Shown one piece after another: positions 1 through 34,205 of a stretch of DNA of 64,000 nucleotides. Within the stretch, counting starts at the first letter, position 1; each line of letters starts with the position of its first letter. A program made the translations under genes and the position numbers. The notes under the pieces are model-generated. The model made no database searches. It saw only the letters and a program-made list of their open reading frames with translations, and was not told the origin of the DNA. Source of the stretch: a virus; IMG/VR virus record IMGVR_UViG_3300049043_000066, positions 2,424 through 66,423 of that record. One strand, given 5' to 3'.

Positions 1-139
1 TCTCACATCACGTCTCCTACTTGACGAACCTGGCAATCGGTGGTAAGATGAGTGTTGAAGATGCCTATACGGAGATTAAAAAACTCTATAAGGCAATGAA
101 ACAATCTCACAAATCATTGAAAGGTTCTTGGTTTTAATT

Positions 140-749
140 ATGACTGACTTTGATGTACAAAAGTATTCACTCGAACAACTTAAAGAATGGGTGGATAATG
201 CAGTTTTATCATCAGAAGCATCACCACAGGAAATTTATGACTGTTATTAGAAGTCTGTAGATTGAGAATCTATCATTACTTCAAGTATCACACTGAGTCG
301 TTGATATGAACTTCTGAGCACTGTTGAATGGTAACGGTAAGGGGCACATTGAAGCATATGATGATTATGTCAAAGAAGTTTTGAGAGAAAGAGAGTATTA
401 TGAGGGCAAAGATGACGGTATGCGTCCTTGGGGACACAGTGATTTAGAATATCAAATTGCAAACGAATCTTTATCCTGTGATAAAGATGATACATCACCA
501 GAATGTCAAGGTGCGTGGAATGACTTTGGGAAGAATATTACTACCCAGAAGAACGTTAAAAAAGATAAAGTCGTGAAATGGCAACTTCCTGTTGAAGCAG
601 ATGCAAGTGGTGAGTATTTTGTTCAGTTCCCGATGATTTACTTGATGCAGCAAATCTTAAAGAAGGAGATACTGTGGAATGGGTTGATAATACTGACGGA
701 ACATATACATTGCGTAAAGTAACAAACCACGTAAAATTAGGAGTGCTGA
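140..749 (+). CDS. Phage protein with C-terminal AbrB/SpoVT-like domain (frameshifted; left-arm copy)
   Basis: WQLPVEADASGEYFVQFPDDLLDAANLKEGDTVEWVDN resembles a swapped-hairpin AbrB fold. Mirror at 28220-28836. Confidence 0.55.
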
Positions 750-978
750 TGGCTCTATCACAATCAGTTGAAGAATCACTGAAGGAAGCAGAAGCATCAC
801 TTAGGAATGCACTTGCATATGCTAGCACGCCAAGAACGTCCTATGGTTTGTTCAGTCATTGCTGATCTTATACATCGCATTGAATCACTTCAAAGCACTG
901 ATGCAATTCATAGATAAACTTGAAAACCGCAAACCAGGAGATTCTGGATCATTTGGCACCTTCTTTGATAAAAATTAA
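749..978 (+). CDS. Hypothetical cyanophage protein (MALSQSVEESLKEAE...)
   Basis: Intact mirror ORF at 27993-28226. Confidence 0.6.
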
Positions 979-1240
979 GCTAATGTAAAGCAATCCCGAA
1001 GAGATTATTAAATGCCATACATAATAATGAAAATATATGTTAGGATTTCAAGATAATCACGGGAGCAAAAACTTATGTCACATTCATCCAAACACTCAGA
1101 AAAATCTGAATAATGATGAGTGGAAAGATATGACTGCAATCAAAAATGCAATCGATTATGATATTTCACAAGTTGCATCCAGAAAATGGAAGCATTTACT
1201 GAATATCTGGTAAGAAGTTTGAGAGAAAAAGGTGGTTGAA

Positions 1241-1276
1241 TTAAAAATAGCTCACCTTTAAAGTGTTCCTATAATG
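1241..1276 (+). promoter_or_regulatory. Repeated phage promoter motif A (AAATAGCTCACC-n-AAAGTGTYCTATAAT)
   Basis: Intergenic. Recurs at 5881-5916 and 7128-7163 and ends in a -10-like TATAAT/TATAGT upstream of ORFs. Confidence 0.65.
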
Positions 1277-1289
1277 AAACTCATTTACT

Positions 1290-1875
1290 ATTTTGACACA
1301 TCTCATTGATCATCTTGAAACTGGTGTGAACTGGAACAAAGTTTTTGGGAGTTGTAGATTCTACTTTACTCTGACAGAGGATTCTCTTCAAATGCAGACA
1401 ACTTTTGCCCGGTGCCACCGCCGTATTAGAAAAAGCACTTGCGGAGTTTTCTGATCTTGTTAGAGTTGATAAGACTGGTTATGATTTTATTTGGGAAGAT
1501 GAGACTGGAAAGCTTCATCAAAATTGAGATGAAGATGGGGCAGAATCTTTTTTACAAACGCAAAGATATTCACGCAACTAAAAAGTTCAAGGTCAAGTTT
1601 TTTATCCGAAAAGAAAACTGTAGAGGATTTCAAAAGATCTACTTACGATTATCTTTTGGTTCTTGATTTGACAGCACGTCGGGTTGTTGTTCTGGAAGAT
1701 GAAGTTGCACGTTCACTGTATCAAGAGGGTGCAGATGGTGCGATGATTGAGATCAAACTGTGATTATTACCAGTGTGATATTGGTGAAGTCAATTCAATT
1801 CTTCCTCCGACTTCACTCTCACAGAAGATTGATAAGCAATCGAAGAGTATCTTGACTTTCGATGTGACACCTAGA
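1290..1875 (+). CDS. PD-(D/E)XK nuclease-like protein (frameshifted; left-arm copy)
   Basis: Reconstructed EKAL...TGYDFIWED...KIEMKMG and YDYLLVLD fit a restriction-like D...ExK motif. Confidence 0.5.
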
Positions 1876-1916
1876 ACTGGCACAAGAGATCTTGTAAGGT
1901 GCCCTTTGATGCTTTA

Positions 1917-2008
1917 TCTAATATAATGCTTAATCGTGGTTGTTTAAGCAAAGGGGAGCAGAAATGCTCCTTTTTTATTATAAATAAGTATAACCACGAT
2001 TAAAGCAG
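1917..2008 (+). ncRNA. Putative antisense sRNA/terminator/late-promoter cassette upstream of GIY-YIG endonuclease 1
   Basis: TGCTTAATCGTGGTT (1927-1941) is complementary to leader AACCACGATTAAAGCA (1992-2007). Hairpin GGAGCAGAAATGCTCC plus T-run at 1955-1976; TATAAATA at 1979-1986. Confidence 0.55.
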
Positions 2009-2638
2009 ATGGAATACTACACTTAACTGCTATTTGCGTGAAGATGGAACACCTTATTATATTGGTAAAGGGAAAGGAAAAAGATGGTATTATAAGTATG
2101 GAAAGAATTGCAAACCACCAAAAGATAGAAGTAGAATAATAAAATTAAAACAGAACCTAACTGAAGAAGAAGCATTTAGGCACGAAATCTATATGATTGC
2201 AGTGTTTGGTAAAAAGTGTGATGGGACTGGCATATTGATGAATGTTGCTGATGGTGGCAATGCTCCTCCTAAAATCTATGGAGATAAACATCATATGAAA
2301 ACTGAAGAATATAAGAAAAGAGTGAGTGAGAAACTTAAAAGGTGAAAAATAACCAAGATGGGGGAAGGAACCTTGGAATAAAGGAAACCAATTCAAGAGG
2401 AAGTTAGGAAAAAATAATTGGTGAAGGTAATGGGCAGTCTAAATGGTGGAAATTAACTTTTGCTGATGGCAGAGAACTGTAATGTGTGGATTGTCTAATT
2501 GGTGTAAGTAATGGTTATAGTAAGGGATGTTTAGGTAGAGTTGCAAAAAGGAAAGAAGGTAGAAAAAAACATAAAGATATTGTGGCAGTTGAGGAACTGG
2601 CACACCCACCCACACAAGAGGTGCAGAATACCCTATAA
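2009..2638 (+). CDS. GIY-YIG family homing endonuclease 1 (frameshifted; left-arm copy)
   Basis: MEYYT.AYLREDGTPYYIGKGKGKR...EEEAFRHEIYMI...GILMNVADGG, followed by NUMOD3-like KRVSEKLKG...PWNKG. Confidence 0.8.
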
Positions 2639-2640
2639 TA
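2582..2640 (+). promoter_or_regulatory. Early promoter motif B (GAACTGGCACA ... TATAAT) overlapping the endonuclease stop codon
   Basis: Same GAACTGGCACA core as 1873-1883, 31727-31786, 34093-34151 and 35291-35348. Confidence 0.6.
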
Positions 2641-2669
2641 CATTTGTTGATTTGAGGAACCCCTGATCT

Positions 2670-3076
2670 GTGACAAGAAGTCGCATCGGCTCTTGAACTC
2701 TCTGATGGTTCTGTCCTGTCTGCCTATCATCATTGGGATGGTTATCCTTCCTGGTTGGGTCGTATTCTGAAGACTCACTACAACACCAAGACAAAGTTGC
2801 TGAACTGATTGATGGTGGTGATATGAGTTCTGCGTGGACTAACACTGGTTTCAACAATGAAACTGTAGAGCAAGGTCGCTCTGTACTACTCTTCCCGTGG
2901 TGAAGATTGCCCCCCTGTCTTGATAAGAACCTGGGTGAGTATCTTCAGGACAGCGAAGAGTACTGGTTACGTCTATCACTCGGGAACCGAAGGTTGGTCT
3001 TGTGCTATGATACCTGTGACTGGCACGAAACCTATCTTGAACAACAAGAAATCCCTCTGGAGCACTTGCAGTATGA
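2670..3076 (+). CDS. Conserved hypothetical phage protein (MTRSRIG...YHHWDGYP)
   Basis: Mirror ORF at 26054-26305; the HWDGYP motif is common in myovirus early proteins. Confidence 0.6.
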
Positions 3077-3443
3077 CTCAAACTGAACGTAAGTATCTGA
3101 TTGTAACTGTACTTGGTGTGGTGGCAATCGTTGGTTGGAATGTATTTTGTATCCAACGTGATGCTGTAATGTTTAAGGTATATGCTATAATCAACAAGCA
3201 ACTCAAAATCAAAGATGATAGAGTTTCTCATCATTTCAGCAGCATTTGCCTGGGCATTCTTTGCACTATTTTCCAAACACTTTGATTACCTGAGTAAAAA
3301 ATGATTCCTGAACGTATTTCAACAACTGATTCAACAAGCAGAACAAAGCAAAGAAGCAGAAGAGTTCTGGCAAGAAGTCTGCAATCGAACTTGCAGAGAA
3401 ACACCAGGTAACCTGCGACCACACCTTGGCAGAGTTCTACTAA

Positions 3444-3546
3444 TCTAATATACTGTGCTCTAATTAGGTGACACTATAGATAGAGGAGGAGCAGAAATGC
3501 TCCTTTTCTTGTATAAATATTAAGTCACCTAATTTAAGAAGCAGTT
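3444..3546 (+). ncRNA. Putative antisense sRNA/terminator/late-promoter cassette upstream of GIY-YIG endonuclease 2
   Basis: AATTAGGTGAC (3462-3472) is complementary to leader GTCACCTAATT (3524-3534). Identical hairpin GGAGCAGAAATGCTCC at 3488-3503; TATAAATA at 3512-3519. Confidence 0.55.
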
Positions 3547-4234
3547 ATGTCTCACCAAGGCAAGAGTCACTGTGTCCATTGTATTTTTACGGGAAAGAAA
3601 TACATTGGAGAGACAGTTAAAAATCATTTGAATTATAGAATTGCAGAGCATTTTGCAGATTGTAGAAATTACAATCATAAATTTGCAAATGCTTTAAAAA
3701 AATATGGGAAGAAATGGATTTATATGGGGAGTAATTGAAGAAGTGTGATTTTGATATGTTGAATGATAAAGAGATATACTGGATAGAACATAGGACACAT
3801 TTAATAATGGATATAACTCAACAATAGGTGGGGAATCAAGCCAAAGTATATGCCAAAGGAGATTGTAGAAACTCCAACTTTGATATGAAAGAAATTAAAA
3901 ATCTATCTCAATATTGTAGATATAATAACTTAAATATTGCACACGTTCATGAAACTTTTTATGGAAAAGATTACAACATAAAGGTTATAAATTAATTCAA
4001 GAACTGATGAAGAAATTGAAAGATATGAAAATGAAAGAAAAGGTAAGAGAAGATACAAGTAGAAAAGGTTTACCTGGTGATAGAAATGGAAGAGCAATAC
4101 TTGATTGGAATAAAGTTTATGAAATAAGAAATCTACACACCAGAAATATACAAAAATCAAGAAATAGCAGATATGTTTGGAATTAAACTCTGACATTAGA
4201 AAAAATAGTTTCCAATAAACTATGGACGGTTTAG
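3547..4234 (+). CDS. GIY-YIG family homing endonuclease 2 (frameshifted; left-arm copy)
   Basis: Mirror copy reads GKIYCVHCIFTGKKYIGQT...R..EH...E.YWI...GYNST.GG, with a C-terminal HTH-like segment. Confidence 0.8.
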
Positions 4235-4274
4235 GAACCGAACACTTGACTTTTGCCCACAAAACTTTTATGAT
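4224..4274 (+). promoter_or_regulatory. Sigma70-type early promoter (motif B variant)
   Basis: TTGACT-17 bp-TATGAT; upstream motif overlaps the endonuclease 2 stop. Confidence 0.65.
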
Positions 4275-4706
4275 GTATCTGTTAAACAAAAGAGGTTAAT
4301 GGTACAAAGTTTTATTTAATTGATTATTTTGTTCCTCAAATTTCCAATGGGAATATGGTGGATTGCTTGTAGTTGTTGCAGAAAACGATGAAGAATGTTT
4401 TGATGTTGTTGTTGAATGGGAAATGAAACTTGGACAGAGCATTATAGCAAACTTCGTGAATGTTGTAAAGGATAATGCTTTGCACTTTTGGAAAATGAAG
4501 ACTCAAAAGTTGTAGAGGCATTTACAACGTGACACAAAACATTGAACATACTAACAGAATGATCAACCAACTTAAGTTTCAGTATCAAGGACGTATCACT
4601 GAATTGCAACAAAAGATTACAGAACAACAGCAAGAGATTTTACAACTGCAAGAGCAGATTAAACTGCTCTCATACGTCAAAGATTATGATTGTTAATTTT
4701 TGATTT

Positions 4707-4895
4707 ATGAAACCATCTTTTGCCAAGGGTATTATCGTTCAGCATAAAAATTGGGTGGGAGAAGTTCGTTTTGTTTGCGAAGAATACATCTCAATTTGTG
4801 TTCGTGTCGGAAACAATCGAGCAAACGATATTTGTGTCTTGGTGTATAGAGATGATTGGAGCACAGTTAAGTTGCTGAAAGAATCTGGTAAATGA
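4707..4895 (+). CDS. Hypothetical cyanophage protein
   Basis: Intact 62 aa ORF, identical in mirror 24083-24271. Confidence 0.6.
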   Translation: MKPSFAKGIIVQHKNWVGEVRFVCEEYISICVRVGNNRANDICVLVYRDDWSTVKLLKESGK

Positions 4896-5158
4896 AGAAG
4901 AAGTCTAAAGGATTACTTTATTACATCTATTGTGCTCTTGGTGAAAAGTCTCATCCAAACTGCAATAAAACAGCAGATCGTGTTGCTCTCATTCGTCTTT
5001 TGATTGCTTTACAACTGATTATCACTAACTTTTTTATTATTGGCGGGGTAATAGTTAATATTATATCAATACATCGTCATTGGAATGATGTGCCTAAGGC
5101 CAAGTTCGACAAATACATAAAAAGTATTTGTAGAGATGAAACCTATATTAAAGATTAA
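4892..5158 (+). CDS. Hypothetical membrane protein
   Basis: 88 aa ORF with hydrophobic segment; mirror 23820-24086. Confidence 0.6.
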   Translation: MKKKSKGLLYYIYCALGEKSHPNCNKTADRVALIRLLIALQLIITNFFIIGGVIVNIISIHRHWNDVPKAKFDKYIKSICRDETYIKD

Positions 5159-5190
5159 AAAGGAGGGGTTTTATCCCCTCCTTTAGTTTT
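5157..5190. terminator. Bidirectional intrinsic terminator
   Basis: AAAAGGAGGGG-TTTTAT-CCCCTCCTTT between convergent genes; mirror 23789-23821. Confidence 0.8.
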
Positions 5191-5388
5191 ATTTGGAACT
5201 TACAAAGTCATTGATGACTTCTGCTTGTTGCAGAACTGATTCAAAGTTGGATATTTTTCAGCAAAGTCTGCTGAGATTAAACCATCTGGATTTTGTCGTT
5301 GTGCTATTTCAAACTTCATACTGTAATCATCTTGTAGCATATTGTATGCTTGCTTAAAAATCTCAAAACGTAATTCATAAGGTGTCAT
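5189..5388 (-). CDS. Conserved hypothetical cyanophage protein (MTPYELRFEIFKQA...)
   Basis: RBS aggaga; intact mirror at 23588-23788. Confidence 0.65.
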
Positions 5389-5469
5389 AGGTATTCTCCT
5401 GTGTAATGTGTGTGATGTGTAGTACATCAAAGTATATATTAGAATAAATATCTAAAAAAGTCAAGTATA

Positions 5470-5880
5470 ATGAAAACCTTTCAGCAGTTTTGTGAAGATG
5501 CTGCATCTCAATACAGAGCAGGAGAACTAGCATATCAATCATCAGCACCTGCAAGACTTGCTGCTCGTCGTGCCGCTGCTTATGAACGATCAAGAACTCG
5601 TGGAAAAGATTTTGCTGCTAAATCAAAACAAAGACTGCAAGCACAAAAAGAAAGACACGCACAAATAAGACAAGATTATAAAAGAGTAAGTCAAAGAGAG
5701 GATTTGCAATTAGAGCAAGTCCCAGTTATGAAGTCGAATGAATATAATAAGCAAATTGCAAGACGCCAAGCAACTCAAAAGTCAGCACATATTAAACACG
5801 TTCATAGTGAAATTGGCGCAGAAGCAAGAGCACAACAAGCAGCAAAACAATCAAGACTTAAGACAATTATGAGTCGTTGA
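5470..5880 (+). CDS. Hypothetical late protein (MKTFQQFCE N-terminus)
   Basis: 136 aa ORF preceded by late-promoter-like ATAAATA; MKTFxxF start is typical of T4-like head-associated proteins. Confidence 0.6.
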   Translation: MKTFQQFCEDAASQYRAGELAYQSSAPARLAARRAAAYERSRTRGKDFAAKSKQRLQAQKERHAQIRQDYKRVSQREDLQLEQVPVMKSNEYNKQIARRQATQKSAHIKHVHSEIGAEARAQQAAKQSRLKTIMSR

Positions 5881-6539
5881 ATTAAAATAGCTCACCTCCA
5901 AAGTGTCTTTATAGTGTAAGCAACTTATCTAAAATGGATCACTTTGATGATTTGCAAATTGAAGAGTTTTCTTCCTTTGATTTTGTTGAAGAAATGAATG
6001 AACGTCTCCTTGAAGAGGAGGATAACAAATCTTTTGATGCTTTTTTGAACTCTAATGTTGATTTTTGATTATGACTCCTGTAAGCTCTAATTTTAATGGT
6101 GATGTTGTTACCTTCCTTGGTTTGGTTGGCGTTATTTCAACGTTTATTATTCTTGTCTCGGTTTTTCGTTCCTATTACAATTCTCCTCTTTGTAAATGAC
6201 CGAAACTATTCTGAACGTGCTTTCTCACCTTAAAAGAGTCTCCAAAATTGCTTGGAGGAAACAAGATTTTATTTTTCAAATCAACAACAAGTAGAAGAGC
6301 ACTGACTCTTCTAATTGCAACTCGCTCAACGTGTGCGTCAATTTTATACTGAAGGTCTGTGTGTCTAAAGGTAGAGCAAACGGACTGATACAATCAAAGA
6401 TGCTAAAAAGAGTGTCCAAAGAACGACGAAAACCTTCCAGGACTTTATTACTGAAGCAAGAAAAAGGTTCAACCTATGTTAAAAGACCTATTGAACACAA
6501 ACTTGGCCTGATATTGGTCCTGGAAAGAAGGAGTATAAT

Positions 6540-7123
6540 GTCGTAACTTCTAAAGGTTATCCTAAAGAAGCATACGACGCCAGTGTGATGAGTTCTTCAC
6601 AAACCTGCTCGCACTGGTGAAGGTGTGGACGTATTGGTGCTGAACGTAAGAAAACTCGAACCTGAGAGCACGCAGATACGAAGGCTCGTCGGTGGGGGAA
6701 AATGGAACCTGCTAAAGAATACAAACCGCGCAAGATATTGGTGTTCAAAGACCAACATCCACAAGAGTTCGAACAACCTGAAAGAGAAAGAGGTTCTGCT
6801 GCATTATCACCTGAAGGAGGCACAACGCAAAGCAGACGCGAAAGAAAAGCAAAGAAAAAGAGGGGAATGGGCAACGAACAACCGCATCACGAGCTCTTTA
6901 GAACGAAAAAGAAAGAAACTGTTTCTATCAGACCGATCAACCACAAAAAGCATCTGGAAAAACAAGAGCAGAACGAGATCGAGAAAGAAATAAAGCAAAG
7001 AGTGAAATGTTGAGGCAAAGAAAAGCAAAATTATTTGCTGACTATAAAGAAGTTCACGGCAAAAATCCAACAGGAAAAGAAACAAGATTGCTTGGTTTAG
7101 TTCATCAATCTATGAAAGGTTGA
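6540..7123 (+). CDS. Hypothetical basic, charged cyanophage protein (frameshifted)
   Basis: Overlapping K/R/E-rich ORF fragments 6625-6993 and 6702-7013; mirror ~21880-22430. Confidence 0.4.
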
Positions 7124-7395
7124 GTTATTAAAGTTACTCACCTCGAAAGTGTTCTGTAGTATAAGCACTCTGAGAGCACCTTGAGAATCGACTACAACGT
7201 TATGGAAACTGTGACTGTGAGGGTTGATACCTTAAAACGTCTAATTAGTAGACTTGCAGGATGCAGTCAACGTCTGCTATAATGTTGACTCATCTGAGAG
7301 CGACAGCTTACGAAAAAACCTATCCTTTTGCGACAGGTTATCTCGTTGCTGCGATGAACTCGTGTGATTGACGACCTTAACAACATTCTGAACAA

Positions 7396-8315
7396 GTGAT
7401 TACTCTTCGTCCTCATCAACATCGTGCTGTTGCTGCTATGCAAAAGCACAACAAAGGTCAAGTGATTGTGCCTACTGCAGGCGGAAAAACGTTGAAAGAT
7501 GATTGTAGATACTCTGCGTCAGTTTCAGTCAGAAACTCCACAGACTGTTGTAGTTGTTGCTCTCGCGTATTCTGCTCGCTGAGCAACTCTCTGCCGAGTT
7601 TTTGGAGCACGTTGTTGACCCTATGGTTCGTATTCTTCACGTTCACAGTGGAGAAACCTCACCACCAATCTACTACCAATCCTGATGTGATTTACGATTG
7701 GGCAGTGCAAACTACAACGCGTCATCGACTCATCTTCACCACCTACAATTCTCTGAATCGTATTCAAGAGTCTGGTATTGATGTGGATACGATCTACTTT
7801 GACGAGGCACACAATAGCGTCCAACGTCACTTCTTCTTCCTGCAACGGAACACTTTGCTGCTAATGCAAGGCGTTGCTACTTCTTCACTGCAACTCCGGA
7901 AAACATTCGACTGCACTCCTTGGCTAAACCTGGAATGAATCAATGCTGATGTCTATGGTCAGGTCATCTGTCAGCGTTCCTGCTCCTGAACTCGTGGATG
8001 GGGGGATACATTACTGCCTCCTAAAGTTGTGGTCGAAGCAGTTTGCCGTATTGGTCACCGATCGTCAGGTAACTGCCGAGTGCGACAGTGATGCAATCTT
8101 AACTGGAGACGCTTGATGAGCATTGAGCGTCAGAAAATCTTGGTCGCGCTCGCATCCTGCCAAGCAACTCATCGGCCTGGTGTCGCTATCCTGACTGCTG
8201 CTTCGCAGCTGGATCATCGTGGCTGTACTCTTGGATGACGATTGCCTCCAAGACGGGCGCGGTTATTGATGGTAAGAAAGGTGGACCGTGAGGTAGTTCT
8301 TTGATACTCTCAATG
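7396..8315 (+). CDS. SF2 (DExH, type III Res-like) helicase, 3'-truncated at the junction (left-arm copy)
   Basis: LRPHQ Q-motif, VPTAGGKT, TTYNSL, YFDEAH, FTATP. Confidence 0.8.
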
Positions 8316-8562
8316 TTCAGGTATTCAACTCTGAATTGGGAAGATTTACTGAGAAAGTGTGCAACTTGTCAGGCAATCAAGCTATTATATCAGCATTACA
8401 AGATGATAGAACAAAGGAAAAGATAGAACAAAATTTAAAATTATTGAATGAAGATCTTAATATTAAAAGGATACATAGGAAGATCAACGATTATTTGAAA
8501 TTAATCAATAAAGAAGCTAGAACAAGATACTACACAGGAATGAAGGAAGAGGTTAATTATCC

Positions 8563-9340
8563 TTAATCTTCATCAGGATTAAGTTCGTTAAGTAATCCTA
8601 CTTCTCTCTCAGCATATAAACTTGAGGATAATGTTTAAAAATACAACACCATCGTGTATGCTGTTTTTTAATATAAATTATTGTATTCTTATCTAACCCT
8701 AGATATTCTTGTAAGAAATATTTAATTCTTCCACTTGCTGATGAAGGAAAATAAACAAAACAATGACTCTCGTTGAGAATGCGTCTGGTATCTTTGCCAT
8801 TGGTGGGCAAATGATTGGTCACGATAACATATGTCCGAGTATGTCTACCACATTCCAACAACTGGTTGAGTATCTTATATACGGCTTCCCGTTGCTTTTT
8901 ATCAGGAATTACATCTATATCATCAAAAATGCAAACAGAATCTGCGAGATCCTCTAAAGTTATAGGGTCCTCTATTAAAGTCTCATCGATGGTTATTCGT
9001 TGCGGATTTACACTGTCTAAACTTTCATCTTGACCTATTGCGGAAAATAAATATATTGGTATCTCTTTTTCTTCTTTTTCAATTCTTCTATATACTTCCT
9101 AGTGAAAGTAGATTTACCAGAACCACTTGGTCCTGTAATATATACAATTTGACGCTCAGTAGTTAAATCTGGAACTAATTGAAATTTTGACTCATTAGAA
9201 ATAGATAATCTTTTAAACTCTTTCATTATAGTATCATCGTCTTTATCATTCTGTTGATCTGTTACACTTACTAACATGTTATGGTATTTACCTTTATCCA
9301 CTCTACATAATGGTTTTCCAACTTTGTTTAAGTTTAACAT
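8563..9340 (-). CDS. A32/FtsK-HerA-like packaging ATPase (duplicate copy, frameshifted)
   Basis: GPSGSGKST, VCIFDDID, LECGRH..YVIVTNH. Confidence 0.75.
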
Positions 9341-9505
9341 TATTATATAAATATGCATATATTTTATATAATAATGTAAATAATCCAAATGGTTCTAAAA
9401 TCTCAAATAACATGTTGAATTAGGCTAATTGCTTCATAAATTTAAGCCTAATTTATATTATATAAAGTTAAAATTATTTTCTATATTATTGTTAAATAAT
9501 CGCAA

Positions 9506-9684
9506 ATGGATGTAGAAAGTCAAAAAACATGTGAAATACCAGGCAGTCCATGTAAAGAAAAGCCAAAACAACGCTGTCCTGTATGTGGTGCTCAATTATT
9601 CTAGAAACAGTATAGAAGCACTCTAAAACAAAGAAACATTTAGACGCATTGTTTGTTATGCATGATAGATTTGAAATAAAATAA
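9506..9684 (+). CDS. Small C2H2 Zn-finger protein (duplicate copy)
   Basis: RCPVCGAQL...H.KTKKH. Confidence 0.55.
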
Positions 9685-9908
9685 ATATAGTATAAAGTAA
9701 AGTATGATGAGAATGAAAGTGTTTAAAAATGTGGAACTTGATATGGATGCATCAGGAGCTACTGATGACGACTTAGTTGATCACCATAATGACACTAAAA
9801 AGAAAATAATTATATGTCCTTGTTGCGGTGTATTATTTGATCCTAAAACTAAAGAGCTACAAGTGATAACTTTCAGCAGGAGATATAAAAGATCTAACAG
9901 AACAGTAT

Positions 9909-10207
9909 ATGATGGAGGTAGTAATACAACAGAGCAGAAAAAAGGGAAGAAGCTGGACGCAGTGATTGATGGAAAGAAAACCGTCTCTTTTGGTCAGAAA
10001 AATGCATTTTCAGACTTTACGCTTCATAAGGACTAGGAGAGAAAGAATAGGTATATCGCCAGACATCAGAAGAATGAGAACTGGCAAGATCCTAAAACAC
10101 CTGGATTTTATAGTCGATGGATCCTCTGGAATAAACCTACCATTCAAGCTTCAGTGAATGATATTAATAAAAGGTATAAGAATATTAATTTTATCTTTAA
10201 GAATTAA
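9909..10207 (+). CDS. DUF5754-like giant-virus/PLV-associated protein (duplicate copy)
   Basis: KKLDAVIDGKKTVSFGQK..SDFTLHKD...YIARH...PGFYSRWILWNKPT. Confidence 0.65.
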
Positions 10208-10208
10208 T

Positions 10209-10965
10209 ATGGTAAAGTATAATAACATAATCAACAGATTAGGGAATAAAGAAACCGACATGAAGCACTTTAAGCATTTATTACCCCTGGAATGTTAAAA
10301 CAGTGGTGGAACCGTTCAGTGGCTCCTTTGCTGTCATTAAGCATTTCTATAAGGACTGGAATAAATATGATTTTCATATCAATGATACAGATGAGACATT
10401 ATTCTATGCCTTTAAGCATTATGAGCATATCCACGATGTGATCTATGAGTTAAATAGAGTATATAATGATGACTTCGAATTAAGGAAGCGAGACTTCAGG
10501 AAGTTCTTTGACTCTCTGGAACTCTCACCGCATGTCAAGGAACATATCAGGAAGACTCATTTCGTTCGTGGTCAGTTATGGCGTTGTCCTAAGAATCATG
10601 ACAATTATAACCCCGTGGAAGCCTCCATCCTGGAGAATGCTAAAATAACTAACTTGGGATTATAAAGACATCTTCGAGATGTATAAGGACGACGAGGAAG
10701 CCTTTTTATTTTTGGATCCGCCTTATCTATATTCAGATAATAGTAATTATGCATCTCAAATAAGGGATACAGATATGACCCAGATAGTTGTTGATATCAT
10801 AGAATTTTTAAAACTTGTAAATGTAAGGTGATGCTGGTGATTAATAAATTGAACTTATTATCATATTTATTCAGTGATTATATTAAAGGCGAGTATGAGA
10901 AGATATATCAAATAAGCAAGAAAAAGGCGATACACTTAATTATCTGCAACTATGATATAGAATGA
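10209..10965 (+). CDS. D12-class (Dam-like) N6-adenine DNA methyltransferase (duplicate copy, frameshifted)
   Basis: RLGNK, VVEPFSGSFAV (motif I), HIND, FLDPPY (motif IV). Confidence 0.8.
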
Positions 10966-11392
10966 TTATTTCCATGCTAGAATGTATTTATAAGCAGTGT
11001 TGCTTCGGCTGGAGGCACGATGCTAAAGAAATAAGGATCCTGAACAGAATAAGAACGATATCCAAGATTTGACCGATAAGAGATCGCCCACCTCAAGAAA
11101 TTCTTACTACGGAATTACGACAAGGTGTGCTGTTACTAATTAGGAACTAAAAGGATATCTGATCGGATGAATAAATGGTCTCGGTTTTTGATCTTGTAAA
11201 ATTTCTGCCCCTCCGACTTCTGTTATATCCACGAGCCTCGTGCAAGTCTTTTGACCAGACGCCAGATTCTTTCCTTATCCAGCGGTCCTTTCTTTTTGTA
11301 TAGCCTAACCTTGTCGCCTATAGCAATGTTCAGGTATTTCCTTTTCCAACATAGTTTCTCATTTCTAGTCTTAACTTTTATGCCCACAATAT

Positions 11393-25441: not shown

Positions 25442-25545
25442 AACTGCTTCTTAAATTAGGTGACTTAATATTTATACAAGAAAAGGAGCATTTCTGCTCC
25501 TCCTCTATCTATAGTGTCACCTAATTAGAGCACCGTTATTTAGAT
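25442..25545 (-). ncRNA. Antisense sRNA cassette of endonuclease 2 (right-arm copy)
   Basis: CTAAATA, anti-leader, GGAGCAGAAATGCTCC-TTTT, TATAAATA, leader, ATG. Confidence 0.55.
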
Positions 25546-26966: not shown

Positions 26967-27060
26967 CTGCTTTAATCGTGGTTATACTTATTTATAATAA
27001 AAAAGGAGCATTTCTGCTCCCCTTTGCTTAAACAACCACGATTAAGCATTATTATTAGAT
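26967..27060 (-). ncRNA. Antisense sRNA cassette of endonuclease 1 (right-arm copy)
   Basis: Same layout as 1917-2008. Confidence 0.55.
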
Positions 27061-31726: not shown

Positions 31727-31786
31727 CATAATACTACAAAAGGCACCCAAAATCAAGTGCCCTTGTACCAGTTCTTCAAGTGTCCT
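31727..31786 (-). promoter_or_regulatory. Early promoter motif B with stem-loop
   Basis: GGACACTTGAAGAACTGGTACA, TTGATT-17-TATTAT, and a GGCAC/GTGCC inverted repeat over the -35. Confidence 0.75.
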
Positions 31787-32016
31787 CAATAACGATGCTC
31801 TGGAACAATCGTAGGTTCTTCTACATTCATACCATTCGCATTTCCAGTATTACAACTATAAAGTGTAGAAAGTTTCTTGCCTTTGCGAACGATATTAAAG
31901 TGATCTATTTGCCCATTATGAGTGAGTGAAGGAAAACCAAACAGCATCATCTCCCATAACCTCATAATGAACACTCACATTATCCAAAAGAGTTCATCAA
32001 CATTTTGTAGTATTGT

Positions 32017-34064: not shown

Positions 34065-34092
34065 TAGGATTGATTTGATTGTGTATGAAGTC

Positions 34093-34151
34093 ATTATACG
34101 ACAAAGAGCACTGAGTTTCAAGTGCTCCTGTGCCAGTTCTTCAAGTGTCCT
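34093..34151 (-). promoter_or_regulatory. Early promoter motif B with stem-loop
   Basis: GGACACTTGAAGAACTGGCACA, TTGAAA-17-TATAAT, and a GAGCACT/AGTGCTC inverted repeat. Confidence 0.8.
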
Positions 34152-34205
34152 CATCATCTAGTGCCTCATTCAAATCAACACCATCCAATACTTCATCAGA
34201 CCATT

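Follow-up and report, generated by a model that had tools for sequence, protein, structure and literature searches.

In phage T4, the endonuclease genes I-TevI, I-TevII, I-TevIII and segB carry a hairpin that hides the ribosome-binding site (RBS) on long early and middle transcripts, as does Aeh1 mobE (PMC2988022, in part). A late promoter located inside this T4-type hairpin produces an mRNA without the 5′ arm (PMC2988022, in part). Dassa et al. (2009) described metagenomic ‘fractured gene’ loci with phage-like GIY-YIG and Vsr-like endonuclease genes (PMC2677866, in part). In the text of that paper, 15 of 16 endonuclease 5′ UTRs contain hairpins, and 10 have TATAAATA together with complementary stem motifs. 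These hairpins may be the same element as the one described here, a portable and self-contained cassette carried by free-standing homing-endonuclease genes of T4-like, mainly freshwater, cyanophages.

The cassette is a real and widespread elaboration of the known T4 control logic. As in the T4-type locks of I-TevI, I-TevII, I-TevIII, segB and mobE, and of the T4 late genes soc and e, an arm masks the RBS and start codon, and a stable predicted structure sequesters these elements of the endonuclease gene. Also shared is the TATAAATA late promoter between the arms, a position from which late transcripts would start without the 5′ arm. Unlike the T4-type lock, the cassette contains a terminator-like hairpin between the arms and a second late promoter exactly before the 5′ arm (P1; the promoter between the arms is P2). 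The 5′ arm itself is a hairpin that is conserved and covaries, with part of the anti-leader located in the loop, and the complementarity spans the predicted P2 mRNA from its first base to just before the AUG. A further difference is that the cassette moves among at least four endonuclease types, with at least 19 mutually non-pairing arm classes. With regard to early or middle read-in transcripts as the supply of the arm, the neighboring genes are early at some loci and late at others, and a terminator-like hairpin separates the arms.

In IS10 RNA-OUT/RNA-IN and in type I toxin-antitoxin systems with an adjacent small RNA (sRNA), the loop of a short hairpin RNA meets the 5′ end of the target mRNA. 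The cassette is similar in that the loop would cover the target RBS and the regulator is encoded next to a single target. As to a promoter and terminator of its own, which RNA-OUT has, the P1 box is found in 72/72 cassettes, and a hairpin and T-run are present, at which a terminator scan made no call. Unlike the opposite-strand, overlapping IS10 antisense RNA, the cassette regulator lies in tandem with its target on one strand and does not overlap it, with the arms about 60 nt apart. Their complementarity must therefore be kept by covariation. The bias towards G·U pairs among the duplexes fits a sense-strand RNA.

The cassette also resembles PeSLs, near-identical stem-loops with a promoter that are repeated within a genome and flank variable genes (PMC4122927, in part). 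Similar to PeSL shuffling, arm classes and endonuclease types are shuffled. The PeSLs of T4-like phages differ in having early promoters, no arm/leader pairing and no tie to endonucleases, according to the part of PMC4122927 considered. In a PeSL the stem-loop is followed by a sigma-70-type early promoter, whereas the box in the cassette is the late TATAAATA.

The earlier note on this DNA did not recognize the motif as a described family. This holds for Rfam, which gave no match at the gathering threshold for the whole window, the 64,000-nt stretch of DNA that was analysed. At E ≤ 10, the best match in positions 1800-3700 scored 22 bits against a threshold of 80 (E 0.39-0.41). It does not hold for the core logic, which is known in I-TevI, I-TevII, I-TevIII, segB and mobE (PMC2988022, in part). 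In the parts of the literature covered, no second promoter, internal terminator or small RNA is described for homing endonucleases; the figures of PMC2677866 and the lists of PMC10690425 may contain the motif. The text of PMC2677866, compared without its figures, mentions none of the three. The term ‘small RNA’ does not occur in the available text of a review of T4 mobile elements, where ‘antisense’ is used only for gene or promoter orientation.

Organization of cassette 2 and the source DNA

The window is located in a 66-kb IMG/VR fragment. In an isolate-phage collection, all 42 of the 42 DNA matches to this record are Synechococcus phages or cyanophages. A portable control unit of about 110 bases (cassette 2) is located 5′ of an endonuclease gene (endonuclease gene 2), and a sister unit (cassette 1) is found in the same window. 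Their features are as follows.

3445-3452, + strand: P1, a late-promoter-like box, degenerate (CTAATATA); the mirror copy reads CTAAATA
3456-3458, + strand: conserved TGC, start of hairpin 1
3456-3485, + strand: hairpin 1 (variable); stem CTCTA 3458-3462 with TAGAG 3481-3485
3462-3472, + strand: anti-leader arm AATTAGGTGAC, in the 5′ strand and loop of hairpin 1
3482-3510, + strand: terminator-like hairpin including the T-run; an upstream purine run can lengthen the stem
3488-3503, + strand: 16-nt hairpin GGAGCAGAAATGCTCC; GGAGCA 3488-3493, GAAA loop, TGCTCC 3498-3503
3504-3510, + strand: T-run TTTTCTT
3512-3519, + strand: P2, TATAAATA, a perfect T4-type late-promoter box between the arms
3524-3546, + strand: leader, the 5′ UTR of the predicted P2 transcript, about 22 nt
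3524-3534, + strand: leader arm GTCACCTAATT, the exact complement of 3462-3472, starting four bases past P2
3540-3544, + strand: AGCAG
3547-3549, + strand: ATG, preceded by the 3′ part of the leader, AAGAAGCAG
3547-4231, + strand: GIY-YIG homing-endonuclease gene 2 with several frame changes, from tblastn with intact relatives of 231-236 aa
25454-25543, − strand: inverted second copy of cassette 2; CTAAATA 25543-25537, TGC 25532-25530, arm 25526-25516, hairpin 25500-25485, TATAAATA 25476-25469, leader arm 25464-25454
25441-25439, − strand: ATG of the mirror cassette-2 gene, which ends at about 24755
1920-2011, + strand: sister cassette 1; arm TGCTTAATCGTGGTT 1927-1941, hairpin 1955-1970, TATAAATA 1979-1986, leader 1992-2007 (AACCACGATTAAAGCA), ATG 2009-2011; mirror around 27005-27020

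All elements that the earlier note had named at 3444-3546 are present in the sequence. The predicted start of the P2 transcript follows the +1 position of T4 late promoters relative to the box. In cassette 2, the SD-like AAGAAG and the GCA of the leader pair with the 5′ TGC region. The 121-nt cassette 2 has a predicted fold of −40.5 kcal/mol (z = −6.05), and none of 200 shuffles is as good; the fold of cassette 1 is −34.6 kcal/mol (z = −4.78). In the predicted fold of cassette 2, the arms form an outer stem around the inner hairpin and TATAAATA, which continues over the AUG. The 16-nt hairpin occurs four times in the window (1955 and 3488 on the + strand, 25485 and 27005 on the − strand), compared to 0.00 expected from 100 shuffles. 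Two other TATAAATA sites in the window, at 9346 and 17904, were examined and are not cassettes.

The two cassettes have the same layout, and the arm pair in cassette 2 is wholly unlike that in cassette 1. The cognate duplexes are at −20.8 and −20.9 kcal/mol (−20.9 kcal/mol for cassette 2), whereas cross-pairing of the two cassettes gives only −6.9 and −9.6 kcal/mol. The claim that the pairing sequence has changed fully and is still complementary to its own leader is thus borne out.

Positions 3463-3479, in the loop of hairpin 1, strongly resemble what we take to be a single-subunit phage RNA polymerase promoter. We treat this likeness as a coincidence, which it probably is; related arm classes grade stepwise into it. 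No further copy of this promoter-like stretch is found elsewhere within the window. The same arm class is also found in loci L028, L124, L151, L200, L246, L274 and L275.

A large part of the window is duplicated in inverted orientation. Positions 1-8315 are the reverse complement of 28975-20716 (94.9% identity, 208 mismatches and 190 gap openings). As part of the same duplication, 8315-11347 pairs with 20586-17550 (95.3% identical), and a unique center of about 6 kb separates the two duplicate arms. Over its 11 kb (1-11347/17550-28975, about 95% identity), the duplication shows about one indel per 40 bases, and the ORFs are short fragments in both copies. A long-read foldback or an unpolished repeat is more probable than a biological origin, and the differences between the two copies look like sequencing errors. 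Since the mirror is an inverted duplicate of about 95% identity with indels, it represents a second, error-containing reading of one locus. The mirror at 25442-25545 was therefore rejected as independent support, given its approximately 5% differences and 190 gap openings. The CTAAATA of cassette 2, which the earlier note had given from the mirror, is intact only there (25543-25537), and the + copy reads CTAATATA. Altogether, P1 is intact in just one of the four cassette copies in the window, and endonuclease gene 2 is frameshifted in both copies, at different places.

Two other groups of repeats are found in the window. On the − strand, 38700-64000 contains many imperfect direct-repeat families that are rich in CCACCACC, Gly-rich and spread over about 25 kb. 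They presumably encode very large repetitive fiber or structural proteins. A 62-nt direct repeat (31727-31788 and 34092-34153) is 81% identical in its two copies, which are 2365 nt apart. With its GGCAC...GTGCC hairpin, this repeat may represent a further recurring regulatory punctuation.

Spread and shared plan in other viruses

The cassette is found in many viruses. Two scans gave the exact 16-mer in at least 119 viral contigs and the pattern of hairpin, T-run and TATAAATA in at least 118, which supports the view that the module is widespread. At least 121 instances have enough flanking sequence. Of these 76 are distinct, and four of the 76 come from the window itself, leaving 72 others. All 72 (among the matches listed) follow one shared plan. 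Its 5′ half consists of NTAAATA (P1), four bases, T[G/A]C, the variable hairpin 1 and AGAGRG. Its 3′ half consists of the terminator-like hairpin with the T-run, TATAAATA, 4-5 bases, the complementary leader, AAGAGCAG, 0-5 bases and ATG. The leader is complementary to the 5′ strand and loop of hairpin 1.

The individual elements are highly regular in these cassettes. The TAAATA of P1 is present in 72/72 and was absent from the search pattern. The spacer from P1 to T[G/A]C is 4 nt in 71/72, and the leader pairing begins 4-5 nt past TATAAATA in 71/71. Hairpin 1 forms a helix of at least 5 bp that starts no more than 4 nt from the predicted 5′ end in 56 of 62 non-redundant cassettes. A protein-only search with relatives of endonuclease 2 gave 36 loci, one of which has no N-terminus and was dropped. 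The remaining 35 represent 13 distinct upstream regions, and by inspection all 13 have the full cassette including P1.

Synechococcus phage S-SRM01 is the sole isolate with the cassette in a blastn search of 50,697 isolate records. It is carried by three of the six NUMOD3 endonuclease genes in this phage, with copies near 18.0, 51.3 and 62.5 kb, and P1 is present in all three. NTAAATA is also located before the S-SRM01 terminase, portal and scaffold genes (5 of the 9 upstream regions inspected), so that P1 looks like a working late promoter. Neither promoters nor hairpins are mentioned in the available text of the S-SRM01 paper.

The downstream ORFs were scanned in 65 of the 76 distinct cassettes. 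Left out were L030 and L097, which are cut by the locus end; L169 and L210, which have an early stop; L153, which has no ATG; the near-duplicates L138, L215 and L220; and three window copies. The family phrog_314, ‘homing endonuclease’, matches 54 of the 65 ORFs, and Pfam found NUMOD3 in 33, GIY-YIG in seven and HNH in one. The tie between the cassette and homing-endonuclease genes is confirmed by the phrog_314 and NUMOD3 matches (54/65 and 33/65). In the window, the downstream ORF matches PF01541 GIY-YIG (E 1.2e-5) and, with the N-terminus of the mirror copy, phrog_5123 (E 7.6e-14). The catalytic domain and the NUMOD DNA-binding modules of its relatives are those of a GIY-YIG homing endonuclease. 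The intact relatives are 231-262 aa long, and the window gene is frameshifted.

Two loci are exceptions. In L156, the leader is fused to an unrelated ORF. In L154 (3005-3125), a ‘solo’ cassette with P1, hairpin 1, the terminator and P2 is located directly before a baseplate-hub gene, and has neither the leader arm nor an endonuclease; relatives carry an endonuclease at that site. This solo cassette is either a loss remnant or a pre-insertion state.

The hairpin between the arms is more variable than the earlier note supposed. The three cassettes in S-SRM01 use three other terminator hairpins, each different, and the relatives of endonuclease gene 2 show compensated stem variants. The 16-nt hairpin is therefore the commonest variant rather than a fixed scaffold, which refutes the proposal of a constant scaffold. 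Among the matches listed in viral contigs, the exact 16-mer is outside cassettes in 94 of 109 distinct contexts. A T-rich tail follows it in 75 of these 94, and in 33 of the 75 a TAAATA is no more than 35 nt away. Judged from these contexts, the exact 16-mer is a generic, common putative terminator hairpin of phages. Outside cassettes (L005-L123), GGAGCAGAAATGCTCC is found as part of a shared punctuation that combines a terminator with a late promoter.

The strength of the terminator is less clear than its position. The T-run can pair with the purine run 5′ of the stem, and for this reason a simple terminator scan called no + strand terminator at either cassette of the window. The stem consists of just six G/C-rich pairs, and the U-run is interrupted.

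Specificity and covariation of the arm and leader

The pairing between arm and leader is specific and selected. The cognate duplex is kept in 71 of the 72 other cassettes, at about −21 kcal/mol (among the matches listed). Including the window copies, 75/76 cognate duplexes are between −18.8 and −25.3 kcal/mol, compared to −9.2 ± 2.8 kcal/mol for shuffled leaders; the sole unpaired exception is L154, at −4.0 kcal/mol. The duplex has a median length of 17 bp and ends 2-3 nt short of the AUG. At least 19 arm classes were counted, and they do not pair with each other. Among 18 class representatives, duplexes average −22.2 kcal/mol for the cognate pairs and −10.5 (sd 3.3) for the 306 non-cognate pairs. 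With 17 of the 18 arms, the cognate leader gives the strongest duplex, and only 3/306 non-cognate pairs reach the weakest cognate, as expected from the claim that each arm is specific for its own leader. In 17/18, the leader is also the best site for the arm within ±1.5 kb on both strands, with the antisense of the arm itself set aside. In the whole S-SRM01 genome, every 13-nt leader core is present exactly once.

The covariation was analysed with two alignments. The first, of 47 cassettes, was produced with MAFFT and RNAalifold and recovered the terminator alone, because the variable arms were out of register. The second is a better-registered alignment of 17 rows with endonuclease-2-type cassettes. 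It contains a core helix of 11 pairs, which are 96.8% paired. In eight of the 11, both partners have changed, which supports the claimed covariation of arm and leader. The terminator in this alignment has 10 pairs that are 99.4% paired, three of them changed on both sides. In the long-range stems and terminator together (24 pairs), 12 are double-changed compared to 5.7 ± 1.5 when shuffled, and 0/500 shuffles reach this number. Ninety-eight percent of the alignment cells are paired, and 34-52% when the partners are slid. The terminal TGC:GCA becomes TAC:GTA in two rows.

Hairpin 1 is excluded from the 24 pairs and was counted separately. Three of its six stem pairs are changed on both sides and 91% are paired, a value that is lowered by L254, L260 and the window row, whose columns are shifted by one position. 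By these changes and the helix in 56 of 62 cassettes, hairpin 1 is conserved for its own sake.

Two additional observations indicate at which level the pairing acts. In 44 non-redundant duplexes, there are 33 G·U pairs and no A·C 1×1 mismatches. This locates the selection on the sense-strand RNA rather than the DNA. The predicted unpaired probability of positions −14 to +3 has a mean (n = 18) of 0.59 in the P2 mRNA, 0.36 in an RNA started at P1 and 0.32 in an RNA started further upstream. Compared to the P2 mRNA, the drops have Wilcoxon p values of 5e-5 and 1.5e-5, respectively. The anatomy, conservation, covariation and specificity of the cassette are established by these data.

It is improbable that the duplex acts positively or on the fate of the RNA, as a processing site or by protecting the 5′ end from RNase E/J. 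The duplex does take in the 5′ terminus of the predicted P2 mRNA, and antisense duplexes protect cyanophage transcripts. However, it also covers the SD-like region up to 2-3 nt from the AUG, which predicts repression.

Proposed mechanism, alternatives and mobility

We infer promoter use, termination, the existence of a small RNA and repression, and combine them in the following model. The terminator-like hairpin would cut the endonuclease gene off from upstream transcription, and the late promoter P2 would produce an mRNA with a leader of 17-25 nt only. The upstream arm would be antisense to the full length of this leader, beginning at about +1 and ending 2-3 nt before the AUG, so that any RNA with both arms would be translationally masked. 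Such masking of read-through RNA in cis would follow the logic of T4 I-TevI and Aeh1 mobE. P1, exactly 4 nt before the arm, and the terminator would most likely define an RNA of about 55 nt, composed of hairpin 1 and the terminator hairpin. The loop of this RNA would capture the P2 mRNA at its 5′ end and thereby mask it in trans, which would keep the nuclease dose low late in infection.

The model as a whole is a self-insulating control of dose and timing, in which the approximately 55-nt RNA from P1 to the terminator masks in trans and the same pairing locks read-through RNA in cis. We regard it as evenly poised between right and wrong. A separate sRNA role for the arm is plausible. That the cassettes form programmable RNA/leader pairs, with a late RNA of about 55 nt repressing only the neighboring nuclease mRNA in trans and at least 19 orthogonal classes arising through compensatory change, is a tentative proposal that we place just short of even.

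Several points count against action in trans. The known mechanism, which acts only in cis, accounts for every part but P1 and hairpin 1. P1 and P2 are both late-type, so that regulator and target would be made simultaneously, to no obvious advantage. The lack of a + strand call in the terminator scan also weighs against the small RNA. The arm may instead matter only in read-through RNA, from upstream promoters or P1. P2 would then give an unmasked late mRNA, and a short P1 product, if any, would be functionless. This account is possible, on the doubtful side. Its geometry equals that described for I-TevI, segB and mobE (PMC2988022, in part). The long-range fold is the minimum free energy structure and lowers the accessibility of the start site, and the strength of the terminator is uncertain. 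However, P1 is invariant (72/72, and 13/13 of the protein-found regions) and precisely spaced, and therefore needs a role. Hairpin 1 covaries on its own, and a terminator between the arms works against such a lock. Furthermore, cassettes are also found inside late operons, where a switch between early and late would be purposeless.

RNA libraries provided limited information on transcripts. In a search of their contigs, six runs each contain 0.09-0.13 of the words, and a seventh run from the same study contains almost none. Four contig sets gave no cover of the gene of the queried cassette and no RNA ends. One contig covers a different cassette, beginning in an upstream gene and reaching the leader by way of P1, hairpin 1, the terminator and P2, and may be DNA. 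If it is RNA, it shows read-through rather than termination; its span over the whole cassette is in favor of a lock in cis alone.

These findings have several implications. The cassette shows how an invading selfish nuclease gene can come with its own insulation and a control of its dose. A terminator that shields it from upstream transcription, combined with a late promoter and an RNA mask, would work next to early and late genes alike. Should the short RNA exist and act in trans, it would represent a class of dedicated antisense regulators in T4-like phages that is unreported in the literature covered, the first that are trans-acting, and would supply orthogonal riboregulators ready for use. 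One scaffold carries many arm/leader pairs that do not cross-react, a natural system in which to test RNA-RNA specificity. The cassette is also a good marker in cyanophage contigs for annotating free-standing endonuclease genes and the boundaries of their insertions.

The distribution of arm classes indicates how the cassette spreads. The arm class TACCACAAAC... is found behind at least eight different upstream genes, and one site can hold different arm classes. One endonuclease lineage, always located before the small gene D1, carries at least four arm classes, and one arm class precedes three endonuclease types. Among the neighbors are the genes for tail tube and baseplate hub, which are late, and gp32, Hsp20, a Mom-like protein and gp59-DUF1825, which are early or middle. 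Since one class is found at many sites and one site with many classes, the arms move along with the cassette instead of being taken from the site. An origin of the arms in the insertion site was rejected on the same grounds, with one class at at least eight sites and several classes at one site. By this distribution, the unit is mobile.

The same data bear on two other functions that could be assigned to the cassette. In the first, it is a DNA-level element, such as an endonuclease operator pair, a cruciform or a recombination site. I-TevI autorepresses at an operator that overlaps its late promoter (PMC2988022, in part), and near-identical 32-nt scaffolds could promote shuffling as PeSLs do. 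However, the bias of 33 G·U to 0 A·C is strand-specific. The lineage before D1 with its at least four arm classes indicates that arms do not track protein specificity, and one arm class is found at no fewer than eight sites. We consider a DNA-level element very improbable.

In the second, the cassette is similar to a guide RNA, and its variable region would lead the nuclease to the site at which it homes. The only point in favor is a superficial analogy, a structured RNA with a variable segment before a nuclease gene. The variable segment matches its own leader rather than insertion sites. One class is found at many unrelated sites, there is no second match in the S-SRM01 genome, and the proteins have their own NUMOD3 DNA-binding modules. 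The chance of a guide-like role is practically negligible. Both the guide and the operator readings were rejected, based on the mixing of classes and sites, the G·U bias and the unique leader cores in S-SRM01.

Two loci carry additional features next to the cassette. In L228 (3245-3325; about 18.70-18.77 kb in S-SRM01), a near-perfect sigma-70-type promoter, TTGACA, 17 nt and TATAAT, is located before gp32 and overlaps the stop codon of the endonuclease gene that carries the cassette. The essential downstream gene appears to receive a fresh early promoter from the invader or from its site. In L171, RNA-library contigs join 3978 directly to 4766/4768, without the cassette and the endonuclease; one of them has 67 other letters in between. 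These joints are endonuclease-free alleles of the locus in lake samples.
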